Shown: positions 13,756 to 32,078, counted from the first letter of the stretch. The stretch: 56,059 nt of DNA from a virus (IMGVR_UViG_3300033004_000002:1-56059); one strand, 5' to 3'. The notes: generated by a model from the letters alone, not told the origin. Made by a program: numbers and translations.

Positions 13756-14205
13756 CTAGAAGTCACCTTCAGCAACTTGCGCACACGGCACCCCCGCCGC
13801 CCGCCAAGCCTTAACCACCCGCGATCGATCATCAAAAACAACCACCGGCTCAAAGCCGTCGGCGCGGACCTGTTCGAGCAGAACGATCTTCAGCACGTCG
13901 TCGTCGCGATGATCGCCGTCCGGGCGCATGTAGAGCCGCAGCGGATAGCGACCGGTATAGGCGCCGTGATCGGACAGCCATTGCGCGGTCTTCTCCCTGC
14001 AGCGCTCCGCGCGGCCCGATACGAAGACGGTCACCAGCTCGCGATCGAGGGCGCGCAGCACGCGGATCATGTGCGGGATCGGCTTGTCGTCGTGACAGAG
14101 ATCGAAATAGGCATCCCATTGCTTGGGTGTCTGTTGAATCAGGTGCAGGCGGTGATCGCCGTTGGCGAGGGTACCGTCGATGTCGAAGATCACGCAGGGT
14201 TTCAT
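13756..14205 (-). CDS. HAD phosphatase (T4 PNK 3'-phosphatase-like)
   Basis: IFDIDGTLA, VSGR, MRP..D.R.D..K, FDDR..VV..WR, QVA-GDF. Confidence 0.9.
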   Translation of the reverse strand: MKPCVIFDIDGTLANGDHRLHLIQQTPKQWDAYFDLCHDDKPIPHMIRVLRALDRELVTVFVSGRAERCREKTAQWLSDHGAYTGRYPLRLYMRPDGDHRDDDVLKIVLLEQVRADGFEPVVVFDDRSRVVKAWRAAGVPCAQVAEGDF

Positions 14206-14906: not shown

Positions 14907-15298
14907 GCCGCTTCGCCCTCCTGCTCATCCTCTTCAAAAGGGAAGTCGTCATCATCCCCATCGCCCGAGACCATATCGTCAGGTGTACCCGGCTTCGGTA
15001 GCGTCAGCCGTGACGGCGGCTCCCACGGTTTGTTGCGCGCGAGCACGGTTTCCTCATCGGTCAGGGCGTAGGAGAAGATCGCGGCACCAGAATAGTAGTG
15101 CGTCGTCCAGCCGTGCGCGGCCGGGTCGCCCTTGATCGGCACATCGATGCGCAGCATCTTGGCGCCGAAGCGTTCCTCTTCGCGGGCGCGGCCCCAATGG
15201 CTGCGATGGCCCATGATCTCGACCAGCATCCATTCCCAGCCGGGTTCGGTTGCCGTGGGTTGTGGTTGGGTGATCTGCTCTTGTGCTTCGTTCGTCAT
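14903..15298 (-). CDS. Conserved phage hypothetical protein
   Basis: W-LVEIMGH...GR.REEE.FG.KMLRIDVP pattern; GAGG RBS. Confidence 0.75.
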   Translation of the reverse strand: MTNEAQEQITQPQPTATEPGWEWMLVEIMGHRSHWGRAREEERFGAKMLRIDVPIKGDPAAHGWTTHYYSGAAIFSYALTDEETVLARNKPWEPPSRLTLPKPGTPDDMVSGDGDDDDFPFEEDEQEGEAA

Positions 15299-16878: not shown

Positions 16879-17102
16879 ACCCGCCCCCGCATCTGCTTGA
16901 TCTTCGCCCTCACCACCTTCGGCCACAGCACGATCATCACCGCGATGGCGAGCGCGACGAAGCCGCCCGGCGGCAGCCGGCCGAAGCGGGCGCAGTAGCG
17001 CGACAGCGCGAAATCGATGTAGGCGGATGGTTCGCACAGCATCCAGACCAGCGCCCCGATCAGGAGATAGACGAGCAGCCATGCAACGGGATCGAGCAAC
17101 AT
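16875..17102 (-). CDS. Small membrane protein
   Basis: Two TM segments; GGGAG upstream. Confidence 0.65.
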   Translation of the reverse strand: MLLDPVAWLLVYLLIGALVWMLCEPSAYIDFALSRYCARFGRLPPGGFVALAIAVMIVLWPKVVRAKIKQMRGRV

Positions 17103-17233
17103 GCGAAACACTCCCGGAAATCGAGACAAAGAGGCTCACGCGTTGCGATGATGCGACGCGCGGGCAGGCGTTGGGACTTTGGGTTGACGCAAACGGAACG
17201 CGGGTGATGCTTTACGCGTAGGAAAACGAAGGT

Positions 17234-17280
17234 TTGGGACAACTGCCGGGGTCGCGCGGGGCGGCCCCTGTCAGGTTATT
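17234..17280 (-). repeat. Bipartite site copy D
   Basis: AATAACCTGACAGGGGCCGCC...GGCAGTTGTCCCAA; close to copy B. Confidence 0.9.
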
Positions 17281-17282
17281 GG

Positions 17283-17561
17283 TCAGTCTTTGCGCGGCTC
17301 GGGATACTTGACCCCGCAGAACGGACAGAAGCTCGCGAATATCTTGGTCGGCTTGCCGCGCTTCCTCCCGTCCAGCTTCATCGATTCAATGAACGGACGC
17401 TGCAGTCCGATCCAGGGCAACATAATCTGGGTGTTGCTCTCGGCGAGCTTGGCGTTGATGCGATCGATACAATCACAGTCCGCTGCTGGTGCGTCGTAGT
17501 CGACTGCGGGGTGACCGATGACTGCCGACGCGGGTTCGGTGGCGCGGTGATCCATATTCAA
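17283..17561 (-). CDS. Zn-binding hypothetical protein (CDC...FCPFCG)
   Basis: N-terminus MDHRATEPASAVIG shared with NADAR. Confidence 0.75.
   Translation of the reverse strand: MNMDHRATEPASAVIGHPAVDYDAPAADCDCIDRINAKLAESNTQIMLPWIGLQRPFIESMKLDGRKRGKPTKIFASFCPFCGVKYPEPRKD
17503..17557. repeat. 55-bp repeat (site I)
   Basis: 52/55 identical to 11189-11243. Confidence 0.95.
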
Positions 17562-17568: not shown

Positions 17569-17643
17569 TGGCTGGGAAGGCAGGATTCGAACCTGCGACA
17601 AGGCGGTTAACAGCCACCCGCTCTACCTCTGAGCTACATCCCA
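17569..17643 (-). tRNA. trnN: tRNA-Asn (GTT)
   Basis: Cloverleaf TGGGATG/CTTCCCA (one mismatch), D arm GCTC/GAGC, anticodon loop CT-GTT-AA, T loop TTCGAAT, discriminator G, encoded CCA. Confidence 0.95.
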
Positions 17644-18221: not shown

Positions 18222-18465
18222 GACGCACCCACTCCACCACGCACACCACCCATCATCCGAACGCCCCGGCCTCCCCCATCAAGGCGAAATGATGGCAGGG
18301 AAACTGGAAGAACGTCCGTCACAAAAAAATAACATTTATGTTTGTCACCCGCCGAAATTGTGTTTTCATGGCGTACACCATTACCAAAATGGCGAGACAA
18401 CTCGGCTGGCGGCGGCGGGGTGCGACCATGGGCGCAGTGATTCTGAAGTTTCGGCGACGTCGTCG

Positions 18466-18687
18466 TCATGTGCGGGCCTCTTCGGTGGTCTCGAAACCGA
18501 AGACCGAAGGGCAGACGTCATCCAGATGCCTCGCCGCGAGCGCTTCCTTGATCAGGATAAACTTCTGCTGCGAGATTTTCCCTCGCGCGCGCCAGTTGCT
18601 GACGGCCGACACGCCGACGCCCGCGACCTCGGCCGTTCCGGCCGGTCCTCCGAGCGCGTCGATGACGTCGTCGACTGAATTGAGCAT
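18466..18687 (-). CDS. cro: Cro-like HTH protein
   Basis: VIDALGG...A...GV..SAVSNW..RG.I HTH; divergent from the repressor. Confidence 0.85.
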   Translation of the reverse strand: MLNSVDDVIDALGGPAGTAEVAGVGVSAVSNWRARGKISQQKFILIKEALAARHLDDVCPSVFGFETTEEART

Positions 18688-18693
18688 GCCACC

Positions 18694-18722
18694 AAATTGT
18701 TCACGATATGTGAAGATGTCAA
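18694..18722 (-). promoter_or_regulatory. Leftward promoter (TTGACA-N17-CAATTT) with operator TTCACGATATGTGAA (18700-18714) in the spacer
   Basis: Sigma70-like boxes; palindrome matches three sites at 19045-19111. Confidence 0.75.
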
Positions 18723-18775
18723 CCCTTCACGGAAAGGCAATAGAAATTCCTGCGCCGGTGAGGTCTCATTTGACC

Positions 18776-19036
18776 ATGCCGGAACAACTCAAAGCATTGG
18801 CGAAGCGACTGGAATTGACGCGGGAGGCGTTGGACCTCAACGCGTCGCAGCTGTGCAAAAGGATCGGCATCAAGGAGAACCGTTGGTCTCAATATGAGAG
18901 CGGAGAGCGGCGAATCACCCTGGAAGTCGCCAACGCGCTGTGTGACGAATTCGGCCTGACCTTGGACTGGATTTACCGGGGGAACCCGGCCCAACTGCCG
19001 CATGTGCTCCGGCTGAAAATCCGTCAGGCCGCCTAA
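18776..19036 (+). CDS. XRE-family HTH repressor (no peptidase domain)
   Basis: RL...REALDL....LC.RIGI....WSQYESG.R...LDWIYRG. Confidence 0.88.
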   Translation: MPEQLKALAKRLELTREALDLNASQLCKRIGIKENRWSQYESGERRITLEVANALCDEFGLTLDWIYRGNPAQLPHVLRLKIRQAA

Positions 19037-20059: not shown

Positions 20060-20394
20060 TGGCCCTGCGTCTTCCAGATCGAGGCCAGATCTTTTACGTC
20101 GCCATCGCCGCTTGGTTGGTTGAAGAGCGCGCGGTCCGAGAGTGTGACCTCGATCCCGATACTTACCTGATCGACGATCTCGACTTCGATGGGATCGATC
20201 TCGCCGAATTCATGCTCCATTTCGACGATCGATTCGGGTTCGAACGCAAGTCACCGGAAGCCGAGGCCCTTGCGCCCGTCCGCATCATGGACCTCGTCGA
20301 GTACTGCATCATCAACAATACCTTCAACAAATGCGTCCCCGATCCGGCACGTGGCGTCGGCTATCGCAAAGCGACAGCATGGGAGGTTGCGTGA
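20059..20394 (+). CDS. Acyl-carrier-protein-like protein lacking the phosphopantetheine Ser
   Basis: PDTYLIDDLDFDGIDLAEFMLHFDDRFG aligns with ACP P-x-x-F-x-D-D-L-G-A-D-S-L-D-x-x-E-L-x-M-x-x-E-E-x-F-G. Confidence 0.7.
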   Translation: MALRLPDRGQIFYVAIAAWLVEERAVRECDLDPDTYLIDDLDFDGIDLAEFMLHFDDRFGFERKSPEAEALAPVRIMDLVEYCIINNTFNKCVPDPARGVGYRKATAWEVA

Positions 20395-20639
20395 TGGCCA
20401 TCGGCAACTGCGACTGCTGCGACCGCACCAACGTCCCCGGTTCTGTCGTCAACTGCCCGGGTGAACCCTTCGCCTGCTTCATCTGCCAGGGCGACGACGA
20501 CGCTGACCCCTACGGCGAGCGGGAAATCGATTGCACGGACTGTGACGGCGAAGGCTGCGACGCCTGCAGCGGCTGCGGCACGGTCTGGATTGAGACCGCG
20601 CCGGTCACCCTGGCCGACTTAGAGGAGATGCCCGCGTGA
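20394..20639 (+). CDS. Cys-rich acidic Zn-finger protein
   Basis: Multiple CxxC motifs including DnaJ-like CxxCxGxG. Confidence 0.7.
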   Translation: MAIGNCDCCDRTNVPGSVVNCPGEPFACFICQGDDDADPYGEREIDCTDCDGEGCDACSGCGTVWIETAPVTLADLEEMPA

Positions 20640-20739
20640 TCCGCCCGTTCGCCATCGACCGCATCGAGGCGGTCTTCCTCGCCATCAGCTTCGTCGCGAT
20701 CGGTTTCATGATCGCGGTTGCCTTGTAGGAACAACGCCC

Positions 20740-22134
20740 ATGCATGACCGTACCGACCACAACCGCCTCGCCGCACAGTTCGCCGAGCGTCTGCGCTCCG
20801 ATTCCGCCTTCGTCGAGCAGCGCGTTGCCGAGATCAACGCCTTCGAGGCCCGCGCCCGCGGGCAGGCCCCGCGCAAGCCGAAGCGTACCCGCGTCACGCC
20901 CGTTTCCCCTCCCGTTTCCCCGGCCACGACCGCCGCACCGGTCGCAACACAAGGAGCTACCCCGACCATGTCCAGCATGTCCCTCTTCCAGCCTGCTGTC
21001 GTCACCGCCGCCTATCTCAAGATGGGCGTCATGGGCAAAGCCGGCGGCGGCAAGACCAAGACCGCCTCCAAGATAACGATCGGTCTCGTCAAGCACCTGA
21101 AGAAGCTTGGTGTCGACTATGCCGACCGGCCCGTCGCGTTCTTCGATACGGAGTCCGGGTCCGACTTCGTCATTCCGGACTTCAAGGAAGCCGGCATCCC
21201 GCTGGTGGTCGCCAAGAGCCGGACGCTCGCCGACCTGGTGCAGGCGATCGACTGGGCGGAAGCGCACGCCTCCGCGCTGATCATCGACAGCATCACCCAT
21301 CCCTACCGCGAGATGATCGCGGCGTTCCTGAAGAAGAAGCAGCGCACCTTCCTGCAGATCGATGACTGGCAGTATCTCAAGGGTGACCACGGCTGGCAGA
21401 TGTTCTCCAACCGCTACCTCAATTCCAACCTGCACATCGTCATGTGCGGCCGGGCCGGCGACGACCTCGACCAGTACACCGACGAAAACGGCAAGCGCCA
21501 GCTGGAGAAGGTCGGTGTCAAGATGAAGACCGAGAGCGAAACCGGTTTCGAACCGTCGCTGCTGGTCGAGATGAAGCTGATCGAGCAGAACTCGATGGAA
21601 AAGGCGGCCCGCAAGCGCACCTTCGTCAACCGCGCCATCGTGGTGAAGGACCGCTGGGACGTCATCAACGGCGACGAGATCGACAACCCGGACTTTGCCG
21701 ACTTCCTGCCCCACATCGAAAAGCTCGCGCTCGGCGGCCGGCACGTCGGCTTCCAGGACACCGGCGATTCCACCACCATCCTCAAGACCGAGAAGCGTGA
21801 CCATACTCCCGTGCAGCGCGAAATCTGCATCGACGAAATCCAGACCCTGTTGCAGCTGCATTTCCCCTCGCAACAGGCCGAGGACAAGAAGAACAAGCTG
21901 AAGGCGATCCTCAAGCACTTCGACGCCACCTGGACCGAAATCGAGAAGGTGATGCCGCTGCCCGACCTCCGCGCCGGCTATGACAGCCTGCACCAGGAGC
22001 TGGAGGGTCGGCCCTCCAAGTACGGCACCGCGATCGCGAAGGATGCAGCTCCTGCCGAGATCAACGACAGCCTGCCGACCTTTGCCGACATGGTTGACGA
22101 ATCCTTGCCCGAGCCGACTGCGGCGGCGGCTTAG
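20740..22134 (+). CDS. AAA-24 / Sak4-like ATPase (recombination)
   Basis: Walker A GKAGGGKT, FFDTESGS, LIIDSITH, K.E.ETGFEP, KDR. Confidence 0.85.
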   Translation: MHDRTDHNRLAAQFAERLRSDSAFVEQRVAEINAFEARARGQAPRKPKRTRVTPVSPPVSPATTAAPVATQGATPTMSSMSLFQPAVVTAAYLKMGVMGKAGGGKTKTASKITIGLVKHLKKLGVDYADRPVAFFDTESGSDFVIPDFKEAGIPLVVAKSRTLADLVQAIDWAEAHASALIIDSITHPYREMIAAFLKKKQRTFLQIDDWQYLKGDHGWQMFSNRYLNSNLHIVMCGRAGDDLDQYTDENGKRQLEKVGVKMKTESETGFEPSLLVEMKLIEQNSMEKAARKRTFVNRAIVVKDRWDVINGDEIDNPDFADFLPHIEKLALGGRHVGFQDTGDSTTILKTEKRDHTPVQREICIDEIQTLLQLHFPSQQAEDKKNKLKAILKHFDATWTEIEKVMPLPDLRAGYDSLHQELEGRPSKYGTAIAKDAAPAEINDSLPTFADMVDESLPEPTAAAA

Positions 22135-22218
22135 CGCGCGAGGCCCGGCAGGTCGCGAGCGTAGCGACCTTGCGACCTGCCGGGGATCTTTCCATCACGA
22201 CAATCAGGACCGACACCC

Positions 22219-22434
22219 ATGGGTTTCCACCGCAAAGGCCAGCCGCAAGCGCTCGACCGCGCCGCCATCCGCGCGCAAGTGATCCCGCTGTTGGCCGACG
22301 AACTCGCCTTCCTCGATCGTGCCGCCGATCCGTTTGGGATCGAACACGACTGCCTCAACCCGGCCGGGCACGAAGCCATGGCGTCCTGCGGCGCGATCGT
22401 GTGCGCGCATTGCGCGAAGGTGTTCTGGCAATGA
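22219..22434 (+). CDS. Small Cys-containing protein
   Basis: AGGA RBS; CxxC. Confidence 0.65.
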   Translation: MGFHRKGQPQALDRAAIRAQVIPLLADELAFLDRAADPFGIEHDCLNPAGHEAMASCGAIVCAHCAKVFWQ

Positions 22435-22634
22435 CCCGACGAGAGCGACATCAGCACATCATCGAGAGCTTCGGCCGCGACCGCGAGCGCTATCACCTCG
22501 CCGAGGTTCTCGCCCGCCACGGGCTTTCGGTCCTGACCGACGAGGGGATCGAACTTCTTACCCGGTCCATCGTCACCAGCCATAGGCGCCAGCAGCGCTA
22601 CAACCGCGAAGCCCGCGCGAGGAGGTCGTCATGA
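22431..22634 (+). CDS. Hypothetical protein (MTRRERHQH...)
   Basis: ATGA coupling. Confidence 0.6.
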   Translation: MTRRERHQHIIESFGRDRERYHLAEVLARHGLSVLTDEGIELLTRSIVTSHRRQQRYNREARARRSS

Positions 22635-23035
22635 CCGCGATCGACCTTTCGGCGTGCACGATGCGCGAAGAGGCGCATTACAACGGCGGCAAGGAATGGT
22701 TCGGATATCGTCACCGCTGCATCCAACATCCCCGGCTGACGCGGTTCGATAAGTACATCCGCAAAACGCGCAGCGTAGAGAGCACCTTCAGCGTTGACGG
22801 CAAGCTGGTCGCCAATCTTGAAGCAGCGGCTCAACTCCTCGCAATTCCGTATCAGCCGACGCCGGAAGACCTCGAATTGCTGAGGTTAGTTCCGGACGAA
22901 TGGACCCGCATGGAGGACCGCGTACGCTTCGTGCACCTCCAAGACTTCGGACTGATCGAATTCAAGACTGGAGATTGCCGGCGCACCGACGCCGGCCGCG
23001 CAGCGCTGCAATCGCAACCGGAGTCAGGATCATGA
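22631..23035 (+). CDS. Hypothetical protein
   Basis: GGAGG RBS. Confidence 0.7.
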   Translation: MTAIDLSACTMREEAHYNGGKEWFGYRHRCIQHPRLTRFDKYIRKTRSVESTFSVDGKLVANLEAAAQLLAIPYQPTPEDLELLRLVPDEWTRMEDRVRFVHLQDFGLIEFKTGDCRRTDAGRAALQSQPESGS

Positions 23036-23271
23036 CCGCAACCCCCTTCCTGCTCAACGGCCCCCTGATGACCGCGATCGAGCGCCGTCGCGCCGTCACC
23101 GAGCGCATGGCGAAAGACCTCACCGAGGCCGGGGCGCTGGCCTCCGACCAGGACGCCATCCGGCTGCTGCACGCCAAGGGCTATCCCATGCTCGACGTCG
23201 CGCTGCTCGCGGAAGAAGCGCGGATGCTGGCCTATCAGGAGATCGTGGCGCGGGAGATGAGTGCGCCATGA
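23032..23271 (+). CDS. Hypothetical protein (MTATPFLLNG...)
   Basis: ATGA coupling. Confidence 0.65.
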   Translation: MTATPFLLNGPLMTAIERRRAVTERMAKDLTEAGALASDQDAIRLLHAKGYPMLDVALLAEEARMLAYQEIVAREMSAP

Positions 23272-23543
23272 GCCCGCGAGGACACGACAGGCCATACAGA
23301 GGCCCGCTGATCCCGGTCGGCACAAAGGTCGCTGTCTATTGCCGCTCAAGTTCATGGTTTGGTTCTTCGAGCCGAAATCTGGGTGTGGTGGTCACGGCAG
23401 CGACAGTGCCAGGCACGAGCCGCCGCGCGCGCCGCTTCGACATGCAGCTCCCAATCTACAGTGTTCGCTTGGATGACGGCCGAACGATCAGCATCGAAGG
23501 CAATGCCGATATTTCGATCGCTGAAGAGAGTGGTGCGTCATGA
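23268..23543 (+). CDS. Hypothetical protein (SH3/Tudor-like beta pattern)
   Basis: ATGA coupling. Confidence 0.55.
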   Translation: MSPRGHDRPYRGPLIPVGTKVAVYCRSSSWFGSSSRNLGVVVTAATVPGTSRRARRFDMQLPIYSVRLDDGRTISIEGNADISIAEESGAS

Positions 23544-23908
23544 TCAAGGTCTGGGTGATGCTGGTTTGCATATCGGATGCGCAGGGCCCTTGCCATGACG
23601 CCGCACTGGCGGACGACATTACGTTCCCGACCAAGCATCAGTGCGAACAAAAAATCCACACCCGCGATCCGTTGCATCGTTTCGTGGTGCATTGCGAGGA
23701 GATCACTGTGACGGTTTCACCGAAGTATCCTCCCGCCGGAACGCCATGCGTGATTCTCGGCTCGCCCGATGCTGCCGGCGTCTATGACGAGGAGGGCAAC
23801 TGCGTTGTGCCGTTCAAGTTCACGAGGCCAGACGGCATCGCGCGGCAACCTGAGCAACCTGCGCCGGACCCCCTGATGCACGATTTCCACCCGGACGAGC
23901 GACGGTGA
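23540..23908 (+). CDS. Cys-containing hypothetical protein
   Basis: ATGA coupling; hydrophobic N-terminus. Confidence 0.6.
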   Translation: MIKVWVMLVCISDAQGPCHDAALADDITFPTKHQCEQKIHTRDPLHRFVVHCEEITVTVSPKYPPAGTPCVILGSPDAAGVYDEEGNCVVPFKFTRPDGIARQPEQPAPDPLMHDFHPDERR

Positions 23909-23912
23909 GATC

Positions 23913-24170
23913 ATGAGCGACGAAGCCCGCCAGGCCGCCCGCGCCAAGATCAGAAAAGCCCAAGCCGCTACCGCCGGCATTGACCTCGGCCTGTGGGCCG
24001 CGATCGAACGGCTGCAGCGCGCCGGCAGCCAGGGCAACGGTGCCGGCATCTACGCCGACGTGCCGCAGTTCCGCGCCGCGCTGGCGGACGCCGCATCTGC
24101 CATTTCGCGCGCACAGGAGATCGTGCGCGCGACCGATTGGCCCACGAACGAGGACTATGACGTCGCATGA
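23913..24170 (+). CDS. Hypothetical helical protein
   Basis: High GC3. Confidence 0.7.
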   Translation: MSDEARQAARAKIRKAQAATAGIDLGLWAAIERLQRAGSQGNGAGIYADVPQFRAALADAASAISRAQEIVRATDWPTNEDYDVA

Positions 24171-24322
24171 CCCTCACCCGATGGCTGCACAGCTACCTCC
24201 GCGCATGTCTGATCACCGGCTCGCCTGCGCAGGCCTGGCGCAGCGGGCGGCCTTATCTGCTGGGGGCTGCGCCGTGGTTGAGGGCGGTGTGGATGATGGC
24301 GAAGCAGAGGGGGAAAGCATGA
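24167..24322 (+). CDS. Small protein (MTLTRWLHSYL...), below the ORF-track cutoff
   Basis: ATGA overlaps on both sides; GAGG upstream. Confidence 0.55.
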   Translation: MTLTRWLHSYLRACLITGSPAQAWRSGRPYLLGAAPWLRAVWMMAKQRGKA

Positions 24323-24888
24323 GCATCGAAATTCCAGATGTCGTTGTCTCCACTATTCGCACGGCTGCGAAGATGGGATTTTCGGACGGCTATGCCAGCG
24401 CGGCAACGGCCGCCTATATCCGCCTCTGTTCGCACTTCCATGGCCATACGGGCTCGCTGATCCTGTTCAGTCGCGATCAATATCATCACTCCAGTGGCTG
24501 GATGAAAAACCCGGATTTTGAACGCTGCTGGCATCTGAGCCTGTCGTTCCGCGAACCATTTCCGACATGGCCAGTCGACCGGCTTTCGAGCCCACAGACA
24601 CTGGCGCAACTCGGTGCAGTTATTCCGCTTGTTTCTTTCGATTGGAAGCTGGCGCGAAAGTGGGTCGATCTGATTCTCGGCGATGACGCCAAGCTGTCCT
24701 GGGTTGAGACTGCGAAAAGCCCGCAAGGCAAGGAGCTGAGTGTCATGCACTGGCGCGTGTTCACCGATCCAGGATGGTCGGCGATCAAGCCTCGCGGCGA
24801 AGTCTACAGTAAGGAACTCACCAATGCGGGTTGGCGATCTTGGTCGGACCTCAACATTGAACGACCGAGCAACGTCGATGCCGATTAA
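24319..24888 (+). CDS. Hypothetical protein (RD..HHSSGW.KNPD.ERC.HLSLSF)
   Basis: GAGGGGG RBS; lower GC3. Confidence 0.7.
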   Translation: MSIEIPDVVVSTIRTAAKMGFSDGYASAATAAYIRLCSHFHGHTGSLILFSRDQYHHSSGWMKNPDFERCWHLSLSFREPFPTWPVDRLSSPQTLAQLGAVIPLVSFDWKLARKWVDLILGDDAKLSWVETAKSPQGKELSVMHWRVFTDPGWSAIKPRGEVYSKELTNAGWRSWSDLNIERPSNVDAD

Positions 24889-25312
24889 CCGCCCGCAACG
24901 CCTCACCCCGCCGTCACCGCTCGGCAGCCTGCTTAAACGCGCCGGGGTACCGACCCGGTCGCGCATCTCGCCTGAAGAGAGGAATCCCGACTATCTCGCC
25001 CTGGTCAGGCAGTGTCCCTGCCTGCGCTGCGGCATGGAGCCCTCGGAAGCGGCGCATGTTCGTTACGCGTCGGCCGCTTTCGGGAAGGCCTCCGGGATGC
25101 AGAAGAAGCCGGAGGACCGATTCGCGGTGCCGTTGTGCGCGGACTGTCACCGGCTTGATCGCGACGCACAACACAAGCAGAACGAACGTGGGTTCTGGGA
25201 ACAGATCGATATCAACCCGCTGCTGGTCGCAGCACACCTCTATGCGCAGCGGGGCGACCTGGTGGCGATGCGGGCGGTTTGTTTCGTGGCGATTGCGGAA
25301 CGGGGGAAGTGA
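24878..25312 (+). CDS. DUF968/Ref-like HNH Zn-binding nuclease
   Basis: YL..VR..PC..CG...AAHVR...KP.D...VPLC..CH. Confidence 0.75.
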   Translation: MPINRPQRLTPPSPLGSLLKRAGVPTRSRISPEERNPDYLALVRQCPCLRCGMEPSEAAHVRYASAAFGKASGMQKKPEDRFAVPLCADCHRLDRDAQHKQNERGFWEQIDINPLLVAAHLYAQRGDLVAMRAVCFVAIAERGK

Positions 25313-25488
25313 TGGGCCCTGCTATTGCTCGCTGGACTGGAAAGTGCCCGACCTGCAAATGGCGGTTTGAGGCAGTCTCCGAATCTGAGCCAGAACGCAA
25401 TCCATATCCGAGCGGACTTCGCTGCCCGCACTGTCAAAAAGATGTTTTCTTTTTAACACGCGACACTAAGCCAACAGAGGAAGTTTGA
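25312..25488 (+). CDS. Small Zn-ribbon protein
   Basis: CPTC...CPHC. Confidence 0.55.
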   Translation: MGPAIARWTGKCPTCKWRFEAVSESEPERNPYPSGLRCPHCQKDVFFLTRDTKPTEEV

Positions 25489-26204
25489 ATCACCGGACCG
25501 CCGCCGTCTCGTCGAGAGCGGAGCGGTCATCAGAGAGCGAAGGGATTTGCGACATGCGTGAAAAGCCAATTTTATGTGTCGATTTCGACGGCGTTATTCA
25601 TTCCTACACAAGCGGATGGAAAGGCGCGACCGTCATCCCCGATCCTCCGGTCAAGGGCGCGCTGCGCTGGCTGTGGAAAGCGACCGAATGGTTCGATGTG
25701 CAAGTCTATTCCTCGCGGTCGAAGGAGTCGGCGGAGCGAGAGGCGATGCTGCAATGGATGATGCGTGAGAGCCGCAAGGAGTTCGACGCGGATCATCCGA
25801 TGTGCAATCCGGAGGAGACGGAGGATCTGATCGACCTCACGACTTTCGACAAATATCCGATCACGTTCGCGCACGAAAAGCCGGCCGCGTTCTTGACGAT
25901 CGATGACCGCGCGATCTGCTTCGAGGGCGATTGGAGCGAGATCGACCCGGCCGACCTGCTCAACTTCAAGCCGTGGAACAAGCGAGACCTCGGCGCGACT
26001 GGAACCTTCCCGCAAGGCGTTCTCAACGATGACGACCAGGGCGCACTCAAGATCGGGATCGCCTACGATAAGCGGGATGGGCTCGTACATCTGAATTTCG
26101 GCAAGCCTGTCGCGTGGACTGCCTTCCCTCCGGAAATGGCCGCCAATCTCGCGCGCACGCTGTTGAAGCATGCTGGCGCGAAGAAGATCGAAATTTCCTT
26201 TTAG
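25485..26204 (+). CDS. HAD-family hydrolase fused to a C-terminal conserved phage domain (start may be 25554)
   Basis: LCVDFDGVIHSY, SSR, KPAA..IDDRA; C-terminal GATGTFPQG...DD.G.L...FGKPV.W. Confidence 0.85.
   Translation: MNHRTAAVSSRAERSSESEGICDMREKPILCVDFDGVIHSYTSGWKGATVIPDPPVKGALRWLWKATEWFDVQVYSSRSKESAEREAMLQWMMRESRKEFDADHPMCNPEETEDLIDLTTFDKYPITFAHEKPAAFLTIDDRAICFEGDWSEIDPADLLNFKPWNKRDLGATGTFPQGVLNDDDQGALKIGIAYDKRDGLVHLNFGKPVAWTAFPPEMAANLARTLLKHAGAKKIEISF
25488..25531. repeat. Degenerate bipartite site J at the 5' end of the HAD gene
   Basis: AATCAC-N32-GTCATC; GGTCATCAGAGAGCG matches GGTGATCAGAGAGCG at site G. Confidence 0.6.
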
Positions 26205-26224
26205 CCCCGCGAGCGCGACCGCCA

Positions 26225-26271
26225 GATAACCGAACAGGTCTCACCTCGCACACAGCAGGTCATTGTCCCCA
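26225..26271 (+). repeat. Bipartite site copy E
   Basis: GATAACC-N26-GGTCATTGTCCCCA. Confidence 0.9.
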
Positions 26272-26292
26272 AATCCTTAAGGAATCCCTCCC

Positions 26293-26586
26293 ATGAGCGA
26301 ACGCCTAGGCCGTCTCGAATCCACCAACTACGACGTCTACCTCAGCCTGTCGGAGCAGGCCGCGATCGAAGCCAACCAGCGCGCCAGCGAGGCCTTCGCC
26401 GCAGCGCTGAACCGCCAGATCAAGCGGGGCCGCGAGAGCGTCGCCCGCGGTACCTTCGTCGACCGCTCGCCCGCGATCGGCGCGCGGCGGCTCTATGGCA
26501 GCACGCCTGCGTCCGCCTACGGCTCGCCGGCTCAAATGTGTGCCGAGCGGGGCAGCATCAGCGTGGTTGCGGCGGCGTTGAAGTAG
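26293..26586 (+). CDS. Hypothetical protein
   Basis: AAGGA RBS. Confidence 0.7.
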   Translation: MSERLGRLESTNYDVYLSLSEQAAIEANQRASEAFAAALNRQIKRGRESVARGTFVDRSPAIGARRLYGSTPASAYGSPAQMCAERGSISVVAAALK

Positions 26587-26599
26587 AGGGCTGCGCGCA

Positions 26600-26974
26600 A
26601 TGTACTACCGTCAATGCGGCGACTTGCCCATCCATCCATTCCGACCGAACGAGAACATGGCGCCGCTCGGTCGCAGGCGCCCTGATGGCAGCCGCGAATC
26701 TGCCGGACCCTGGATGTCCATGCTCATGCTTACCGAGGGCGACGCCAAGTACGCCGCGGCGCATCTCAACATGCAAGACGACGGGTTTATCTACGTCGCT
26801 CATCCCAATTTCATGGGCTATGAGGGGCCCGACTACGGCGTGAGCCAGCATCTGAAAACCCCTTGGGGCGCGGGCCCATACTACGATTCCGTCTATCGCG
26901 ATCACCTTGCCCACATCTGCTGGGATCGCCCGATTGTGCCGCAGGCTGACGCCTACAACCATCGAGAAATATAA
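26600..26974 (+). CDS. Hypothetical protein
   Basis: GAGGG RBS. Confidence 0.65.
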   Translation: MYYRQCGDLPIHPFRPNENMAPLGRRRPDGSRESAGPWMSMLMLTEGDAKYAAAHLNMQDDGFIYVAHPNFMGYEGPDYGVSQHLKTPWGAGPYYDSVYRDHLAHICWDRPIVPQADAYNHREI

Positions 26975-26987
26975 GGAGGAAAACGAT

Positions 26988-27392
26988 ATGACGGAATTAG
27001 AAGAGCTAACAGAGCGATTACTGCAGCTCGCCAATGACGAGGGAACCGCGCAAATTCACGATGTCGCTGTGCAGATCGCGAGCCTGGCACCTCGACTCGG
27101 ATCGGCTCCTAAGCGCACGGATACAAAGACGTTGGAGCGGCTTGCCGACCAAATAAAAATAGATGCCTCCTCTGGAAGGGGGCTGAACCCATCGGCGCTT
27201 TTCTCAATCGTTGACATAATTCAGCGCGCGATCGGTGCACCGCTTATGTGGCCGAGCCGATCAGCGGGCGCAGACGCGGCAGATGCCTACTATCGGGGAG
27301 ATCCAGATCTTCGGCACGCTTTCAATGCAGGCGTGAAGTGGGCTGTTGAACAATACCATGACTTGAACCTGGACCAAGTCAGGCCGCGTTGA
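26988..27392 (+). CDS. Hypothetical protein (lower GC)
   Basis: AAGGAGG RBS. Confidence 0.7.
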   Translation: MTELEELTERLLQLANDEGTAQIHDVAVQIASLAPRLGSAPKRTDTKTLERLADQIKIDASSGRGLNPSALFSIVDIIQRAIGAPLMWPSRSAGADAADAYYRGDPDLRHAFNAGVKWAVEQYHDLNLDQVRPR

Positions 27393-27413
27393 CCTCGCAT
27401 CACCGGAGTCACC

Positions 27414-27668
27414 ATGTCCGCACTCACCCTGATGGCCGCAGCCCTCAACAAAGAACTACAGCACCGAGGCGTTTGCGACTTCACGCAGGACGCGTGCGCC
27501 GAGATCCTGCGCACCGTGATCGACCAGGTCCGCGACATCGAGGCAACCTACAACACCTCCCATCCCGGCCCCATGCCCCCCTCGACAGGCCGGGTCACTG
27601 ACGGCGGATGCATCATCGCAAGCGATGCATCCGCCGTCGATTTTGAAAATCAGGAAGAGCAGCCGTGA
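27414..27668 (+). CDS. Hypothetical protein
   Basis: GGAG RBS. Confidence 0.6.
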   Translation: MSALTLMAAALNKELQHRGVCDFTQDACAEILRTVIDQVRDIEATYNTSHPGPMPPSTGRVTDGGCIIASDASAVDFENQEEQP

Positions 27669-27904
27669 CCATAAGCAGAGACGTTCACATCCTCACCAGC
27701 CGCGATCTCGACACCATGGTCAGCGAGGCTTTTCAGCGTGGCGTAAAGCGAGGTCGTTTCGAGCAGCGAATGGATGACGGCAAAGAGCCGGTCGCCAGGA
27801 ACTGCCGGAACTGGCGCGACGGAATCTGCGATCATTGCGGAGCGCAGCACCAGGGCTGCGAAGTCGCTGCAGATTTTAAATGTCCGCATTTCGTTCGTAG
27901 ATAG
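27665..27904 (+). CDS. Cys-rich hypothetical protein
   Basis: GTGA coupling. Confidence 0.55.
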   Translation: MTISRDVHILTSRDLDTMVSEAFQRGVKRGRFEQRMDDGKEPVARNCRNWRDGICDHCGAQHQGCEVAADFKCPHFVRR

Positions 27905-27917
27905 CGGCCGGCAGCCG

Positions 27918-28367
27918 ATGACCACCACAAGCACAGAAAACTTCATTATCGTGGAGCGCGACCTCGATCTGCGGGACTCCGGCGTGTTCACCGGCCAGAT
28001 CCAGATCGTCGAAACTCGCCTGATGCTGTTCGAAGACGGCCGTCCAATCCAGAGCATCGACGGCATCGCCTCGCCGCATATCGAGCACGCCTTTGTGTTT
28101 CATTCGGCGTGGACGGCCTGGCGCTTCGCAATGCAGTTCGAGCCACACTGGGACGCCGGGCGCCGCCGCTATTGGGGCTTCCGACGCTGGGTCGCGCGCA
28201 GGGATGGTGACTTCTTTCCGGGCGAATGCCGGCACGGCATCAACGCGCCGAATCCCTGCATTCACGGCAAGACCTGGATTCCGCACGAGGCCATCATGGC
28301 AGCGGCGGCGGACAGTTTCGAACAAGGCCGACGTTCGGCGCTGGCCGAGATGGGGCAGCCGCAATGA
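27918..28367 (+). CDS. Hypothetical protein
   Basis: High GC3; coupled downstream. Confidence 0.65.
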   Translation: MTTTSTENFIIVERDLDLRDSGVFTGQIQIVETRLMLFEDGRPIQSIDGIASPHIEHAFVFHSAWTAWRFAMQFEPHWDAGRRRYWGFRRWVARRDGDFFPGECRHGINAPNPCIHGKTWIPHEAIMAAAADSFEQGRRSALAEMGQPQ

Positions 28368-28543
28368 AACACGCCCAGCGCCAGAGCGAGGACTCGCTAC
28401 CCCCCGACATCCTGCGGATCGTCGAAGGCATAGCTTTGGCGCTGGCGCAAGAGCATCATGAGATGGAAAACGCGGAAAAAACAGTTTTCAGGGCGGGACG
28501 GCCGGGATTTGATCGGCGCAGCCTTGGCCAACAGGAGCGATGA
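28364..28543 (+). CDS. Candidate recombination directionality factor
   Basis: LPPDILRIVEGIA..LA.E.HE helix of the kind often found just upstream of serine recombinases. Confidence 0.45.
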   Translation: MKHAQRQSEDSLPPDILRIVEGIALALAQEHHEMENAEKTVFRAGRPGFDRRSLGQQER

Positions 28544-28720
28544 ATGACTCTCGAAATCCACTGGGGAAAGGTTGCTCGTCATCTCAAGGATGACGCCGAG
28601 CAAATCAGAGAACGCGCGATAACCGCGTTTCACGGGGACATCGCTACGCAGAAGGAAATGCAGACCCGCGCCGCGATCCTGGAATCGTTGGCGAACGCAC
28701 TTTGGTACGGCCTAGAGTGA
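28544..28720 (+). CDS. 58-aa hypothetical protein (MTLEIHWGKVARHL...), below the ORF-track cutoff
   Basis: AGGAG RBS; GTGA overlap with the integrase start. Confidence 0.6.
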   Translation: MTLEIHWGKVARHLKDDAEQIRERAITAFHGDIATQKEMQTRAAILESLANALWYGLE

Positions 28721-30399
28721 AACGCGCCGCGATCTACGCCCGCTTCTCAAGCGACCTACAGTCCGACCGCTCGATCGAGGACCAGGTCACGCTCTGTCAG
28801 GCGAAGGCCGCCCGCGACGGCTTCAAGATCGTGGCGACCTTCTCCGACCGCGCCCGCTCCGGCGCCTCGATCCACGGCCGCGCCGGCATTGCCGAGCTGC
28901 TCGCCGCCGCCAAGGCCGGCCAATTCGACGTCCTGATCGTCGAGGAGCTCGACCGCCTGTCGCGCTCGCAGGCCGACCTTGCCTCGATCTATGACCGGCT
29001 GACTTTCGTCGGCATCGACATCCTGACCGTGCATGGAGGGGCGGGCCGCACCGACCAGATCCAGGTCGGCATCCGCGGCATCGTCGGCGCCCTGTTCCTG
29101 ACCGACCTGGCGCACAAGGTCCGCCGCGGCGCCGCCGGCAATATCCGGCTGGGCAAGCACGCCGGAGGTCTCGCCTATGGCTACGACACCACGCCGGGCC
29201 AGCCAGGCGCGTGGACCATCAACGAGGAACAGGCGGCCATCGTGCGGCGAATCTTCACAGCCTATCTCGCCGGCGAGCGGACGCCGGCAATCGCGCGATC
29301 GCTCAATGCCGATGGCATCAAGCCGCCGCGCGGCAGCTATTGGCAGCCGGGCGCTTTGACCGGATCAAACAACCGCCACAACGGCATCATGGGCAACGAA
29401 ATCTATTGCGGCCGTCTGGTTTGGAATCGCGTGCGCATGATCAAGGATCCGGAGACCGGAAAGCGCGTGTCGCGGCCGAACCCGGAAACCGAGTGGCAGC
29501 GGGCTGAGGTGCCGCATCTGATGATCGTGCCGCCGGAAGTCTTCGACCAGGCCGCGGCGCTGAAGGCCTCCCGCGGCAATCTGGCGCCGACGCACCGCCG
29601 CGCGCCGAAGGCGCTGCTCTCCGGCCTGCTCAAATGCGGCAGCTGCGGCGGCGGCATGTCGATCAAGGGCCGCGACCGCGGCGGCGTGCGCATCGTCTGC
29701 ACCACGTTCCACAATGCCAAGCTTTGCGCCAACAACCGGACCTATTACCTGCATCACGTCGAGGAGACCGTGCTGTCGGGCCTGCGGCGCCACCTGGTCG
29801 ATCCGCGCGCGATCAAGCACTTCCTCAAATGCTACCACGACGAGCGCAAACGGCTGGTAGTCGAGGCGTCCAGGGAGCGGCCGGATCTGGAGCGGCGGCT
29901 TGGCGAGGCCACCCGCAAGCTCGCCAGGCTCACCGAGGCCATGCTTGACAGCGATGCGCCCGTGGCTTCATTCACCACGAGGATCGCCGAGCTCGAGCGG
30001 GAGAAAGCCGAGATCGAGGCCAGGCTCGCGCAAATGTCGGAACCGGTCCGGGTGATCGCCCTTCATCCGGCAGCCCAAGAGCACTATCTCAAGGTCGTGA
30101 ATGATCTCGCCGCGGCGGTTCGGGACCGCGCCGACCGCAGCGCGATGGCAGCGCCGGTCCGGGACCTGGTCGACAGCGTGATCGTGCATCGGACCTTGCC
30201 GGGCGAGCCGATCCGGCTCACGGTCAACGGGCGCCTGGCGGCGCTGATCGGGCAGCCGGTGTTTCCGCAAGGTTCTCTGTCGGGGGTCAAGTTGGTAGCG
30301 GGAGCCCGCTACGGGATAGAACCCCGTGTGGATGTACCTGTTTTTGCTATGGAGTTTTTTGGCGCGCGAAAAATGGGTCGTACGGCCCCGCACCCATAG
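28717..30399 (+). CDS. int: Large serine recombinase (integrase)
   Basis: AIYARFSS..Q..SI.DQ, D.A.SG, LDRLSR; recombinase domain; Zn ribbon (LLKCGSCG...C...C); coiled coil. Confidence 0.95.
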   Translation: MKRAAIYARFSSDLQSDRSIEDQVTLCQAKAARDGFKIVATFSDRARSGASIHGRAGIAELLAAAKAGQFDVLIVEELDRLSRSQADLASIYDRLTFVGIDILTVHGGAGRTDQIQVGIRGIVGALFLTDLAHKVRRGAAGNIRLGKHAGGLAYGYDTTPGQPGAWTINEEQAAIVRRIFTAYLAGERTPAIARSLNADGIKPPRGSYWQPGALTGSNNRHNGIMGNEIYCGRLVWNRVRMIKDPETGKRVSRPNPETEWQRAEVPHLMIVPPEVFDQAAALKASRGNLAPTHRRAPKALLSGLLKCGSCGGGMSIKGRDRGGVRIVCTTFHNAKLCANNRTYYLHHVEETVLSGLRRHLVDPRAIKHFLKCYHDERKRLVVEASRERPDLERRLGEATRKLARLTEAMLDSDAPVASFTTRIAELEREKAEIEARLAQMSEPVRVIALHPAAQEHYLKVVNDLAAAVRDRADRSAMAAPVRDLVDSVIVHRTLPGEPIRLTVNGRLAALIGQPVFPQGSLSGVKLVAGARYGIEPRVDVPVFAMEFFGARKMGRTAPHP

Positions 30400-30507
30400 A
30401 GCCAATGTGGACTCGCCACATGCCAGCTCGCGCAAAAGCCCGCCAGATGGGTTCCGGCGGGCGTGGTGGCGAGGAGGACAATCACGGCGAGCAGGGGCAT
30501 GGGCCGC

Positions 30508-30807
30508 TCACGTCGCGATCTCGAACATTTCCTCGACCGCCTGGTCGGCGGTGATCTCGCCCCGCTTGTGGGCCTCCAGGATCGGCTTGACGTCCTTGAA
30601 GGACACGGTTTTGATTTCCGTCTTGAACAGGACCGCGCGGACCGCGCAATCCTTGGCTTCGAGCAGCTTGCGCAGGGCCACCGTGCTTTCCGGATTTTTC
30701 GGTAGCTCCGCTGCCAGTTTTCGGGCGAGATCGCCGAACGGTGCGCTGACAGCCTGCAGGTGCGGCGGCAGGTGCTCATAGGCGAAGAACTGCAACAGAT
30801 TATCCAT
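30508..30807 (-). CDS. Conserved small phage protein; helical hairpin reminiscent of nucleotide-sponge proteins
   Basis: FFAYEHLP.HLQ.VS.PF...LP.NPE.TVALRKLLEAKD.AVRA; AAGGA RBS. Confidence 0.8.
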   Translation of the reverse strand: MDNLLQFFAYEHLPPHLQAVSAPFGDLARKLAAELPKNPESTVALRKLLEAKDCAVRAVLFKTEIKTVSFKDVKPILEAHKRGEITADQAVEEMFEIAT

Positions 30808-30860
30808 CGGTCATTCCTTTGATCAACCGGGCATCCGGCCCGGCGCGGAGTTTTCAAGAT

Positions 30861-30906
30861 TGCGGACAACTGTCAGCGGTGAGGGGGTGAGACCGGTTCG
30901 GTTATC
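30861..30906 (-). repeat. Bipartite site copy F; contains the stop of the 30902-31231 gene
   Basis: GCCAGATAACCGAAC.GGTCTCACC shared with copy E; 25-nt spacer. Confidence 0.85.
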
Positions 30907-31231
30907 TGGCAGCGCATGATGCGGCCAAAAGCTTGGCGACTCGCTTCGCTGCGGCAATTTCACTTGCGCAATATTCTTCTTGCTGACGCGGCAGGATGAA
31001 AACGCGACCATCCCAACGTCTATCGAGAAGCACCAATTCAATCTCTGACCACGACAGACCTCCGCGTTGCGCTAGACGACTAAGTGTCTGATCGTGATTC
31101 TGTAGTGCTTGTTTTTCGTGTGGTCCGATTATGGACCATGGAATTCCTTGAGGGAAATCAGCGCCAACCATTTTTCGAGCGCTGCCTAAGACCGGAAACA
31201 AGGCATCCTCCGCTCTCTGATCACCAGTCAT
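30902..31231 (-). CDS. Hypothetical protein (IPW..I.PHE.QA..NH.QTL.RLA.RGGLS..E)
   Basis: GGAGG RBS; lower GC; bracketed by sites F and G. Confidence 0.75.
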   Translation of the reverse strand: MTGDQRAEDALFPVLGSARKMVGADFPQGIPWSIIGPHEKQALQNHDQTLSRLAQRGGLSWSEIELVLLDRRWDGRVFILPRQQEEYCASEIAAAKRVAKLLAASCAAR

Positions 31232-31265
31232 GACGACTCCTCCGCTACGCTGGCAGTTGTCCAAA
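31219..31265 (+). repeat. Bipartite site copy G (inverted relative to F)
   Basis: GATCACC-N26-GGCAGTTGTCCAAA. Confidence 0.8.
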
Positions 31266-31269
31266 ACTT

Positions 31270-31665
31270 TCAAGTCATGCTTCCCGGCATGAAGCAGCGA
31301 ATCTCGATGCGGACCGGCTCGTTTATTCCGCGCCGATAGATTGGCCACACCATGGTGCGCCCGACCCTGTTCGGCTCGGTGATCACCGCTTCGTCGGGCA
31401 CGTCCCACCACTGGTCTTCGATGCGCACGCGATAGTGACCGTCCTTGGTCTCCCAATCGATATCGCTCAAGGCGGTGCCGTCAGCGTCCGAGCAGCACGG
31501 GCCCTTGCCCGACTTCAGATTATCGAACCATGATTTGAGTGGAGACTGGGCATATTTGCCATCGAGATCACGCGCAGGCGCATGCCGAACCGAACAGCCG
31601 ACGGCGAGCAGGGCGAGCGCAATCACGGCCCACAGCCCGTACCAGCGGTTTTCCCTGGTCCTCAT
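31270..31665 (-). CDS. Secreted/membrane-anchored Cys-containing protein (CCSDADG...RCFMPG)
   Basis: N-terminal hydrophobic segment; GAGG RBS. Confidence 0.8.
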   Translation of the reverse strand: MRTRENRWYGLWAVIALALLAVGCSVRHAPARDLDGKYAQSPLKSWFDNLKSGKGPCCSDADGTALSDIDWETKDGHYRVRIEDQWWDVPDEAVITEPNRVGRTMVWPIYRRGINEPVRIEIRCFMPGSMT

Positions 31666-32078
31666 GGCTGCCTCACAAGGATCTGGTCGATCTTGCGCTC
31701 GAGACGATCGAACGCCTCCCGGTTTTCCTTGCGTCTCTCCTCGGCCGCCTCGCGGTCCTCGCTTCTCATCCGGTTGAAGTCGTCGCGGCGGACGAAATCC
31801 TTCTCGACCTCTAGGCGAAGGTCGTCGTACTGCCGGCGAATCCCCTCGAAATATTCCTGGTAATGGCCGCCCATGCCATCGATCCTCGCTTCGACCCGGC
31901 GCTCCGCCTCGCCCAGATCGTGCTGAAAATCGGCGCGGATCGTCGGCTCGATGCGCGCGACCCGCCAGAACCATGCGGCCAGGCTCGAGATCGCCCCGAA
32001 GATGGCCCCGCCCAGCGCGGAGACGGCGTGCGGCCAGTCAAACCCGGACCCGCCCGTATCCTGTGGTTGCATTGTCAC
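31662..32078 (-). CDS. Membrane-anchored coiled-coil protein (lysis-region type)
   Basis: One N-terminal TM segment and a coiled coil ending RLERKIDQI. Confidence 0.75.
   Translation of the reverse strand: MTMQPQDTGGSGFDWPHAVSALGGAIFGAISSLAAWFWRVARIEPTIRADFQHDLGEAERRVEARIDGMGGHYQEYFEGIRRQYDDLRLEVEKDFVRRDDFNRMRSEDREAAEERRKENREAFDRLERKIDQILVRQP

Follow-up and report, generated by a model that had tools for sequence, protein, structure and literature searches.

Two genes of a phage genome are each enclosed by the same pair of conserved intergenic ends. The genome, the complete virus record IMGVR_UViG_3300033004_000002 of 56,059 nucleotides (nt), is referred to in its whole length as the window; it has a direct terminal repeat of 127 nt and a GC content of 62.9%, and its source is an uncultured wetland phage of the temperate type with a serine integrase. 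The first gene encodes a HAD-like protein (cargo 1, the HAD gene) and the second a small protein (cargo 2). The cassette organisation proposed for them in a first-pass annotation is supported both as an architecture and as a pattern of variation among relatives, which are named here by the letter G or L and a number. Concerning its origin, about even weight is placed on the explanation that the two genes are single-gene accessory cassettes in a standard frame and that recombination in portable ends, in preference to transposition, accounts for them.

All four sites on which the proposal was based could be located. The 5' motif reads GGTCATCAGAGAGCG at positions 25525-25539 (+), 15-29 nt upstream of the start codon ATG 25554 of the HAD gene, and GGTGATCAGAGAGCG at 31225-31211 (-); the 3' motif reads GCCAGATAACCGAACAGGTCTCACC at 26221-26245 (+) and GCCAGATAACCGAACCGGTCTCACC at 30910-30886 (-). 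Describing the 5' motif as near the 5' end of the genes was right with respect to the site but has to be corrected with respect to the reading frames, as the motif precedes both the ATG of the HAD gene and the likely TTG start codon of cargo 2; in cargo 2 it directly follows another ATG, at 31231. The two genes indeed lie on opposite strands in separate operons: the HAD gene belongs to the plus-strand early arm, and cargo 2 is found near the end of the late arm on the minus strand, beside the integrase region. In the gene map, a crude one made with our own script based on GC content at third codon positions (GC3) and a listing of open reading frames (ORFs), the minus-strand genes fill two blocks, about 20220 to 1 and 55940 to 30508, and plus-strand genes occupy 20331-30399.

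The two 3' motifs are identical at 24 of 25 positions, and none of 100 dinucleotide shuffles gave two matches with up to 3 mismatches. The 5' motifs agree at 14 of 15 positions; here 0.49 matches were expected with up to 2 mismatches, and 5 of 100 shuffles gave at least two. Taken alone, the 5' pair is thus weak evidence, and it is regarded as real because the motif is kept at orthologous places in relatives (G001 and G002); it also recurs 5' of type-2 elements, as defined below, in five more contigs. A scan of IMG/VR with the 5' motif returned three matches, two of them orthologous and the third, in L045, due to chance, since it represents codons of a ParB-like GHQRA motif.

The 3' motif turned out to be the start of an intergenic element of 50-75 nt that is present in six copies in the window, all of them co-oriented with their genes. 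The element has the order GCCG, 15 nt, ATAACC[TG/GA]AC[A/C]GG, about 22 nt, GGTCATTGTCC. Its conserved parts are box 0 (GCCG, about 19-20 nt 5' of ATAACC), box 1, which in type 2 reads ATAACCGAAC[A/C]GG, and box 2 ([C/A][A/G]TTGTCC, 36-37 nt after ATAACC), the centre of about 22 nt being variable; a CTT tail is often present some 8-10 nt past box 2. The first-pass annotation had treated "type 2" as a distinct type of end. The subtype is real, but type 2 (ATAACCGAAC, GAAC) and type 1 (TGAC) are subtypes of one element family, and the 5' end is an inverted relative of the 3' end. The copies, anchored at the first A of ATAACC, are found at 5990, 9428, 10696, 17279 and 30905 (-) and at 26226 (+). 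All six start at or just past a stop codon and leave 20-140 nt to the start of the next gene, and the intergenic span in each case reaches from the upstream stop codon to the Shine-Dalgarno sequence of the next gene. Four copies are of type 1, all on the minus strand: 9378-9454, 17229-17301, 10643-10719, in which the TAA is the stop codon of the gene 10693-11241, and 5935-6011, which stands between two similar terminators with no gene. With regard to this last region (5903-6060), the two terminators flanking the element copy are near-identical, and the relative G003 has a single terminator there and lacks the element.

The cassette of cargo 2 extends from 31267 to 30859 on the minus strand. 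Its 5' frame (31202-31267) is an inverted copy of the element, to which nhmmer assigned an opposite-strand match at 31239-31273 (E values of 3.6e-4 and 8.5e-5). The outer part of the frame, GGACAACTGCC, mirrors box 2, with GGACAAC at 31262-31256; the inner part is the 5' motif, which mirrors the flank of box 0 and box 1 and by inspection equals the reverse complement of the L009 copy at 17 of 22 positions. The GGAG of this inner part is the Shine-Dalgarno sequence of cargo 2 (GGAGGA at 31210-31205). The whole frame is 92% identical to G002 15568-15632, and the same structure is present in L011, L276 and L318. Cargo 2 itself (30902-31201, GC content of 51.0%) encodes a protein of 99 amino acids, or of 109 if translation began at ATG 31231. 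The start is likely TTG 31201, because the homologous protein clusters P0117 and P0118 (E values of 1e-10 and 2e-8) align from LFPVL/FPIL, which is opened by TTG. Searches of Pfam, PHROG and NCBIfam gave no match for this protein, nor did a separate search of viral contigs. The reading frame closes with the TAA of box 1, which serves as stop codon for four of nine cargos overall, cargo 2 included. The type-2 element on the 3' side (30851-30932, nhmmer E value of 4.5e-15) contains box 1, ATAACCGAACCGG, at 30905-30893 and box 2, CAGTTGTCCGCA, at 30872-30861, and is 96% identical to G002 15859-15913. The form of the inverted copies was designated "type 3" (...CTCTGATCACCAGT...GGCAGTTGTCC). In L256 (7826-8232) and L259 (1479-1960) it is likewise present as a regular 3' element in the orientation of its gene, so that a cargo may face either way relative to both kinds of end.

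The HAD cassette covers 25484-26280 on the plus strand. Its leader (25484-25553) runs from the stop codon of a small upstream ORF to the ATG and includes the 5' motif and the Shine-Dalgarno sequence AAGGGA; homology with G001 begins at 25484, and the same type of leader precedes other cargos in L012 and L017. This leader is a strongly diverged relative of the inverted element copy. The small ORF in front of it (25312-25488, +), located between a DUF968/HNH gene and the leader, encodes 58 amino acids with two CxxC pairs and has a GC content of 52%; two other small ORFs stand in its place in G001, and the junction is devoid of the element. Cargo 1 (25554-26204, GC content of 57.9%) encodes a protein of 216 amino acids with CVDFDGVIH at residues 8-16, which contains a DFDGV motif, a candidate for the motif I (DxDx(T/V) near the N-terminus) of HAD-superfamily phosphatases. 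It matched phrog_23773 (1e-20) and phrog_1238 (1e-9), and searches of Pfam, NCBIfam and PDB sequences returned nothing. The type-2 element behind it (26206-26280, nhmmer E value of 1.2e-16) has box 1, ATAACCGAACAGG, at 26226-26238 and box 2, GGTCATTGTCCCCA, at 26258-26271, and the next gene starts at 26293. The element was found at one of 80 HAD loci, on the G001 contig only, which shows that the ends are not tied to the HAD gene. In L047, a HAD gene with 78% DNA identity is present with neither end, and the similarity stops at the coding sequence.

The ends recur in matched subtypes, as the first-pass annotation had claimed. When the count was restricted to copies preceded by 450 nt or more of sequence, 12 of 16 type-2 copies and none of 17 type-1 copies had the 5' motif or an inverted copy upstream (Fisher test, 5e-6); the count for type 2 rises to 13 of 16 with the copy anchored at 26226, the motif of which lies at -701, just past the scanned flank. 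Inverted nhmmer matches were obtained 5' of seven type-2 copies, which are of the kind seen in the unit 31267-30859; the HAD unit is without one. The remaining picture is that of 20 solo copies out of 37, all co-oriented with transcription. Type-1 copies form a hairpin of their own of about 20 bp, an imperfect palindrome with a 2-nt bulge; their folds range from about -7 to -24 kcal/mol with a shuffle z of about -2, and most type-2 folds are at the level of shuffled sequences. The median self-folding energy was -5.0 kcal/mol for partnered copies versus -15.2 kcal/mol for unpartnered ones (Mann-Whitney p of 2e-4). As copies that fold on themselves stand alone and poor folders have an inverted partner, these data suggest a role for a duplex, formed either by RNA or by single-stranded DNA. 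A long-range pairing between leader and element was considered and rejected: it is strong for the inverted-copy type, but covariation specific to individual cassettes was not seen, and the HAD type is without such pairing.

A repeat of 55 nt, 95% identical between 11189-11243 and 17503-17557 (-), comprises a Shine-Dalgarno sequence, ATG and the first 18 codons (MDHRATEPASAVIG...); it opens two otherwise different genes, each of which is followed by a type-1 element. In the window and its relatives, 7 of the 19 type-1 copies are preceded by this 55-nt 5' end, at a distance of 176-520 nt, and no type-2 copy is. Type-1 copies have a matched 5' end of their own, distinct from the type-2 frame.

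The first-pass annotation had named, as the decisive comparison, that of presence/absence boundaries in relatives with the sites, and in the comparisons of the window with G001, G002 and G003 the boundaries coincide with the sites. In G001, the homologues of the genes flanking the cargo 2 unit (31270-31974 and 30508-30807) are only 56 nt apart, with neither ends nor cargo between them. As G001 is empty at this place, the unit 31267-30859 represents an indel whose edges fall at the outer ends of the inverted copies. The complete relative G003 lacks the small ORF, the HAD gene and the HAD element (window 25302-26292). At another place, two elements and two genes of the window correspond to one element in G003, and this single copy is a chimera that combines the 5' part and centre of the copy at 10696 with the 3' flank of the copy at 9428. 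The switch lies in box 2, and the chimera is the product expected from a box 2 crossover. In about 110 pairwise comparisons of flanks of ±700 nt, the similarity of most pairs was limited to the interval of about -20 to +50 relative to the element. Homology on one side, bounded by the element, was observed for L245 and the copy at 10696, for G005 or L004 versus L026, for G004 and L016 and for L005 and L006; in such one-flank pairs, homology begins either with the opening base of box 1 or at box 2. The end sequences are kept in relatives whose flanks are about 70% identical or unrelated, and because the ends persist while their surroundings diverge, they can be regarded as portable patches of homology. 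One breakpoint between the window and G001, at the small ORFs 25312-25488, falls at a gene boundary free of the element. The contigs of three DNA sequencing runs comprised the source assembly and short identical fragments only, with no informative joints at the cassettes.

Comparison between relatives showed a resident, portable frame in which the cargo is exchanged. Between ends that are 92% and 96% identical, the window has the 99-amino-acid protein and G002 an unrelated membrane protein of 78 amino acids. Outside the unit, the identity between L009 and L021 is 94-97%, and each of them has two full inverted copies, which enclose unrelated inserts of 317 and 354 nt, respectively. The insert of L021 holds a tRNA-Met gene (2977-3053) that starts at the first base past the block shared with L009. 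A third cargo is found in L276 together with a near-identical left end, a type-2 right end and different neighbours, and in L011 and L297 two ends stand back to back as an empty frame without a gene. At the HAD locus, L012 and L017 have the HAD-type leader and a type-2 element around other small genes, again with a DUF968/HNH gene in front and a homologue of 26293-26586 behind; thus the HAD gene of the window and G001 is replaced in L012 by a different cargo of 98 amino acids in front of the same downstream gene family. Related leaders are present in L019 and L024, and in L019 the cassette separates two structural genes which are direct neighbours in the window. The search for the same end pair around other genes, which had likewise been called for, yielded in total eleven different cargos and one empty frame, with the pairing in at least eight independent units. 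In the pairs window/G002 and L009/L021, the new cargo comes with its own box 0 at a fixed distance, and box 1, the centre and box 2 are bound to the locus. The GC content of the cargos (51-58%) is low versus that of the genome (62.9%), which marks them as imports.

A pattern scan of IMG/VR returned 27 matching stretches, 23 of which (26 copies) conform to the extended consensus; the other four were set aside as chance or doubtful matches. The element is absent from the isolated phages of INPHARED, in which only chance 20-mers in Klebsiella phages were encountered. In the scan of bacterial genomes, at least five true loci were recognised among the matches listed, located on three small phage-like contigs of metagenome-assembled genomes (MAGs). 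The rest of these three MAGs has no element, and neither do 400 other genomes of the family to which the Pseudolabrys MAG G006 belongs. In these scans, the element was found only in related uncultured phage contigs. Since it is missing from isolated phages and from the 400 genomes, and since the MAG copies among the matches listed are on phage-like contigs, the element is taken to be the signature of an uncultured phage lineage and not a host repeat. The literature on similar elements yielded only the promoter-early stem-loops (PeSLs) and halovirus repeats (PMC8707807).

In the explanation by recombination within the ends, each frame is composed of a type-2 element on the 3' side and of an inverted copy (cargo 2) or a diverged leader (HAD gene) on the 5' side. 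Such a frame acts as translational punctuation, with the inverted copy providing the GGAG site and box 1 the TAA stop. Recombination within the ends would replace, delete or add a cargo, and could be performed by the RecA protein of the host or by the Sak4-like annealing protein (20740-22134) detected in the protein scan, either in co-infection or with prophages. At the transcript level, the element may have a role as attenuator, processing site or leader. A resident frame with changing cargo fits recombination in conserved ends as in PeSLs. The proposal that the cassettes are mobile units is retained in part: breakpoints do lie at the ends, but the ends stay when the cargo changes, the HAD gene of L047 is without them, no transposase or dedicated recombinase was found among the proteins scanned, and one 7-nt repeat is the sole candidate for a target duplication.

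Several observations weigh against this explanation. Recombination in the element alone cannot place a full inverted-repeat unit into an element-free site, as the G001 case would demand, and the empty site of G001 together with a 7-nt repeat in the window fits transposition or a deletion between short repeats. The HAD leader is weakly element-like, and its duplex with the element is at the level of shuffled controls. Matched pairs of leader and element pair no better than mismatched ones (-41.8 versus -41.6 kcal/mol), RNAalifold derived no consensus RNA structure from the 37 copies, and Rfam reported nothing at the elements in the whole window at E values of up to 1. A consensus scan of 5200-6300, which covers one copy, found no sigma-70-like promoter, although the promoter rules of the host may differ. 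Furthermore, the relatives are metagenomic fragments, and the pairing counts include orthologues (window/G001, window/G002 and L009/L021), so that the copies are phylogenetically non-independent. Finally, the copies were gathered by patterns that required exact boxes, and the invariance of ATAACC and TTGTCC is therefore partly built in.

Tentatively, a dedicated cassette-mobilisation system of temperate alphaproteobacterial phages can be considered, in which a trans-acting transposase or site-specific recombinase reads GCCG, ATAACC and TTGTCC. If true, such a system would correspond in phages to integron cassettes or to cargo-carrying miniature inverted-repeat transposable elements (MITEs), and would insert, excise and exchange accessory genes and tRNAs as plug-in units with their own or a received ribosome-binding site and stop codon.

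Unlikely is the idea that the cassettes are non-autonomous, MITE-like units that end in inverted repeats of some 60 nt, with box 2 outermost, and that are mobilised by a transposase encoded elsewhere and leave solo copies as half-elements. The inverted ends of the unit 31267-30859, its complete absence from G001, the two full inverted copies around the cargos of L009 and L021 and the cargo-less, MITE-like end pair of L011 and L297 are in line with transposition, as are the near-identical left end and type-2 right end of L276 among other neighbours and the cargo orientation in L256 and L259. In addition, the unit of the window is flanked by the direct repeat CTTGAAA on the minus strand, with a left copy at 31268-31274, within which the upstream gene has its stop codon TGA (31272-31270), and a right copy at 30852-30858 just outside box 2; the sequence is once-like in the empty site of G001. 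However, a 7-mer is shared by 1.6% of random pairs of 18-nt windows, for which reason the repeat is taken as a hint only, and by inspection a repeat of this type is limited to this one unit, with none at G002 and L011. No transposase was recognised inside any unit or among the 40 window proteins compared with Pfam or PHROGs. The ends stay while cargo changes, a solo type-2 copy stands in L004 behind a homologue of the same upstream gene, and the HAD-type leader is hardly an inverted repeat. The 20 solo copies of 37, all co-oriented with transcription, are not predicted by transposition.

A purely regulatory function of the element is rated as slightly less probable again. The element would then be punctuation, that is an attenuator or terminator, an RNase III-type site, a leader, an activator-dependent promoter or a site for a DNA-binding protein or the NusG paralogue of the phage, and the breakpoints would reflect a rule by which viable recombinants are joined at gene boundaries. 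Such a function agrees with the co-orientation and stop-to-start placement of the six window copies, with the fixed spacing of the three boxes (19-20 and 36-37 nt), with the stable type-1 hairpins and with the element-free breakpoint at 25312-25488. Moreover, a gene for a NusG-like protein (6212-6790, -; PF02357 with 33.3 bits, UpxY and RfaH being the best NCBIfam matches, below cutoff) is located directly upstream of one copy. A recruitment site for a NusG paralogue, similar to ops/JUMPstart, was nevertheless rejected, as six of eight NusG-like loci are without the element in flanks of up to 10 kb; the region just downstream of the NusG-like gene is occupied by other conserved sequence. The subtype-specific pairing of ends, the empty frame and an inverted copy directed counter to transcription are left unexplained by regulation, and neither a sigma-70-type promoter in the one region scanned nor a family-wide RNA structure was obtained. 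Inspection of the alignment of 37 copies likewise revealed no -35/-10 pair at a spacing of 16-18 nt. Readings of the boxes as sigma-32, extracytoplasmic function (ECF) or sigma-54 promoters or as DnaA or LexA boxes were tried by eye, and none fits all copies.

The view that the elements are sites of a site-specific recombinase, either attC-like as in integrons or of the invertase type, is improbable. On the cargo side the crossover would then separate box 0 from box 1, and on the distal side it would fall inside box 2, which is compatible with the box 0 brought along by the cargo in two pairs of relatives and with the G003 chimera. Type-1 copies are imperfect palindromes 3' of genes in one orientation, inverted pairs would be invertible, and the large serine integrase has an invertase-like catalytic domain. 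This integrase is, however, the sole recombinase among the scanned proteins, which include no tyrosine recombinase; the attC cores RYYYAAC and GTTRRRY are by inspection unmatched, type-2 copies fold poorly, and homologous recombination yields the same products. That the end pairs resemble each other by chance or through a single old duplication with no present function is highly improbable: the 5' motif alone is non-significant in the window, but no shuffle reproduced the 3' pair, both ends are kept in relatives with diverged or unrelated flanks, and the pairing recurs in independent units.

Among known systems, PeSLs are the closest counterpart. They are described (Arbiol et al. 2010, PMC2839356; Comeau et al. 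2014, PMC4122927) as mobile regulatory cassettes of T4-type phages that are built around a consensus sigma-70 early promoter, act as strong promoters and terminators and are interpreted as portable homology for the shuffling of modules. PeSLs resemble the present element in being short intergenic motifs that reach from the upstream stop to the next Shine-Dalgarno sequence and often, as predicted here for type-1 copies, hold a stem-loop, in bordering small genes without assigned function and in terminating indels or replacements between close relatives. They differ, as no sigma-70 promoter was recognised here in the region scanned or by inspection and three other conserved boxes are present, and as the element belongs to a 56-kb phage of the temperate type with a serine integrase, in which inverted pairs give the cargo a ribosome-binding site and a stop codon and one subtype mostly lacks the stem-loop. 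Integron cassettes share with the units described here a single promoter-less gene followed by an imperfect palindrome in one orientation, unrelated cargos and a site that in part (box 0) travels with the cargo. In contrast to integrons, no IntI-type tyrosine recombinase (40 proteins scanned) and no attI were seen, the element is shorter, the 5' inverted copy has no integron counterpart, and the boxes (A/G)ATAACC and (A/G)TTGTCC are not RYYYAAC and GTTRRRY, ATAAC pairing with GTTGT only in AGTTG variants.

The mycobacteriophage mobile elements (MPMEs), which are ultra-small phage transposons, encode a small putative transposase of their own and occur in near-identical copies. MITEs and MPMEs are similar to the cassettes with respect to inverted ends, a tiny payload, a cargo-less form, presence or absence as a whole unit and, in one unit, a short direct repeat; they differ in that the cassettes carry unrelated accessory genes or a tRNA, that no transposase is seen and that more than half of the element copies are solo and oriented with transcription. 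Lambdoid morons are accessory genes of low GC content that are inserted between conserved genes and have their own promoter and terminator. The low-GC inserts of the window are comparable, for instance at the end of the late operon beside the integrase region, but are distinguished by a shared conserved pair of ends. The stoperators of mycobacteriophage L5 are repressor sites of 13 bp, and the intergenic repeats of halovirus HF2 are reportedly AT-rich archaeal promoters; both occur, like the element, as many asymmetric intergenic copies in one orientation relative to transcription, but neither brackets cassettes as inverted pairs.

Other features of the window were recorded in the course of the analysis. 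The large serine integrase (28702-30399, phrog_125) is encoded in the plus arm and adjoins the attachment region, and the protein scan also identified a repressor-like regulator (18338-19036) and a ParB/MT-A70 methyltransferase (15295-17139). Further DNA-binding proteins of the phage are a Myb-like one (8581-9345) and one with a helix-turn-helix (HTH) domain (6812-7972). ARAGORN called tRNA genes at 13714-13807 and 17569-17643 on the minus strand, one being a tRNA-Asn on which Rfam agrees and the other a tRNA-Phe of 94 nt without an Rfam report, which could represent an erroneous call or else a gene that is interrupted. The NusG-like gene stands at the end of the early arm, and the region downstream of it contains a conserved non-coding leader, a terminator and a stretch rich in CCUCC that are common to eight relatives. 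The layout around 6212-6790 and 5770-6210 (-) recalls that of lambda Q, qut and tR' ahead of the late genes. Just past the terminator, at 5773-5873 (-), a sub-threshold Rfam match to suhB/mmgR was noted (34.1 bits versus a gathering threshold of 41), and this suhB/mmgR-like sequence is conserved downstream of the NusG-like gene in relatives.

To our knowledge, the acquisition of single accessory genes by phages, such as morons and ORFans, has mostly been described as illegitimate recombination followed by selection, with the PeSLs of lytic T4-type phages as the clearest exception. The cassettes reported here would represent a second, sequence-unrelated system beside PeSLs, in a lineage of temperate-type soil and wetland phages. 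Their standard frame provides the start signal as well as the stop codon, and at least eleven unrelated cargos occur in it. Searching for the ends may provide a handle on accessory genes in metagenomic phage contigs, and the frame could be a natural insertion site for the engineering of such phages. With regard to gene-by-gene mosaicism, the element family offers a testable case in which the contribution of conserved punctuation alone can be set against that of a dedicated enzyme.

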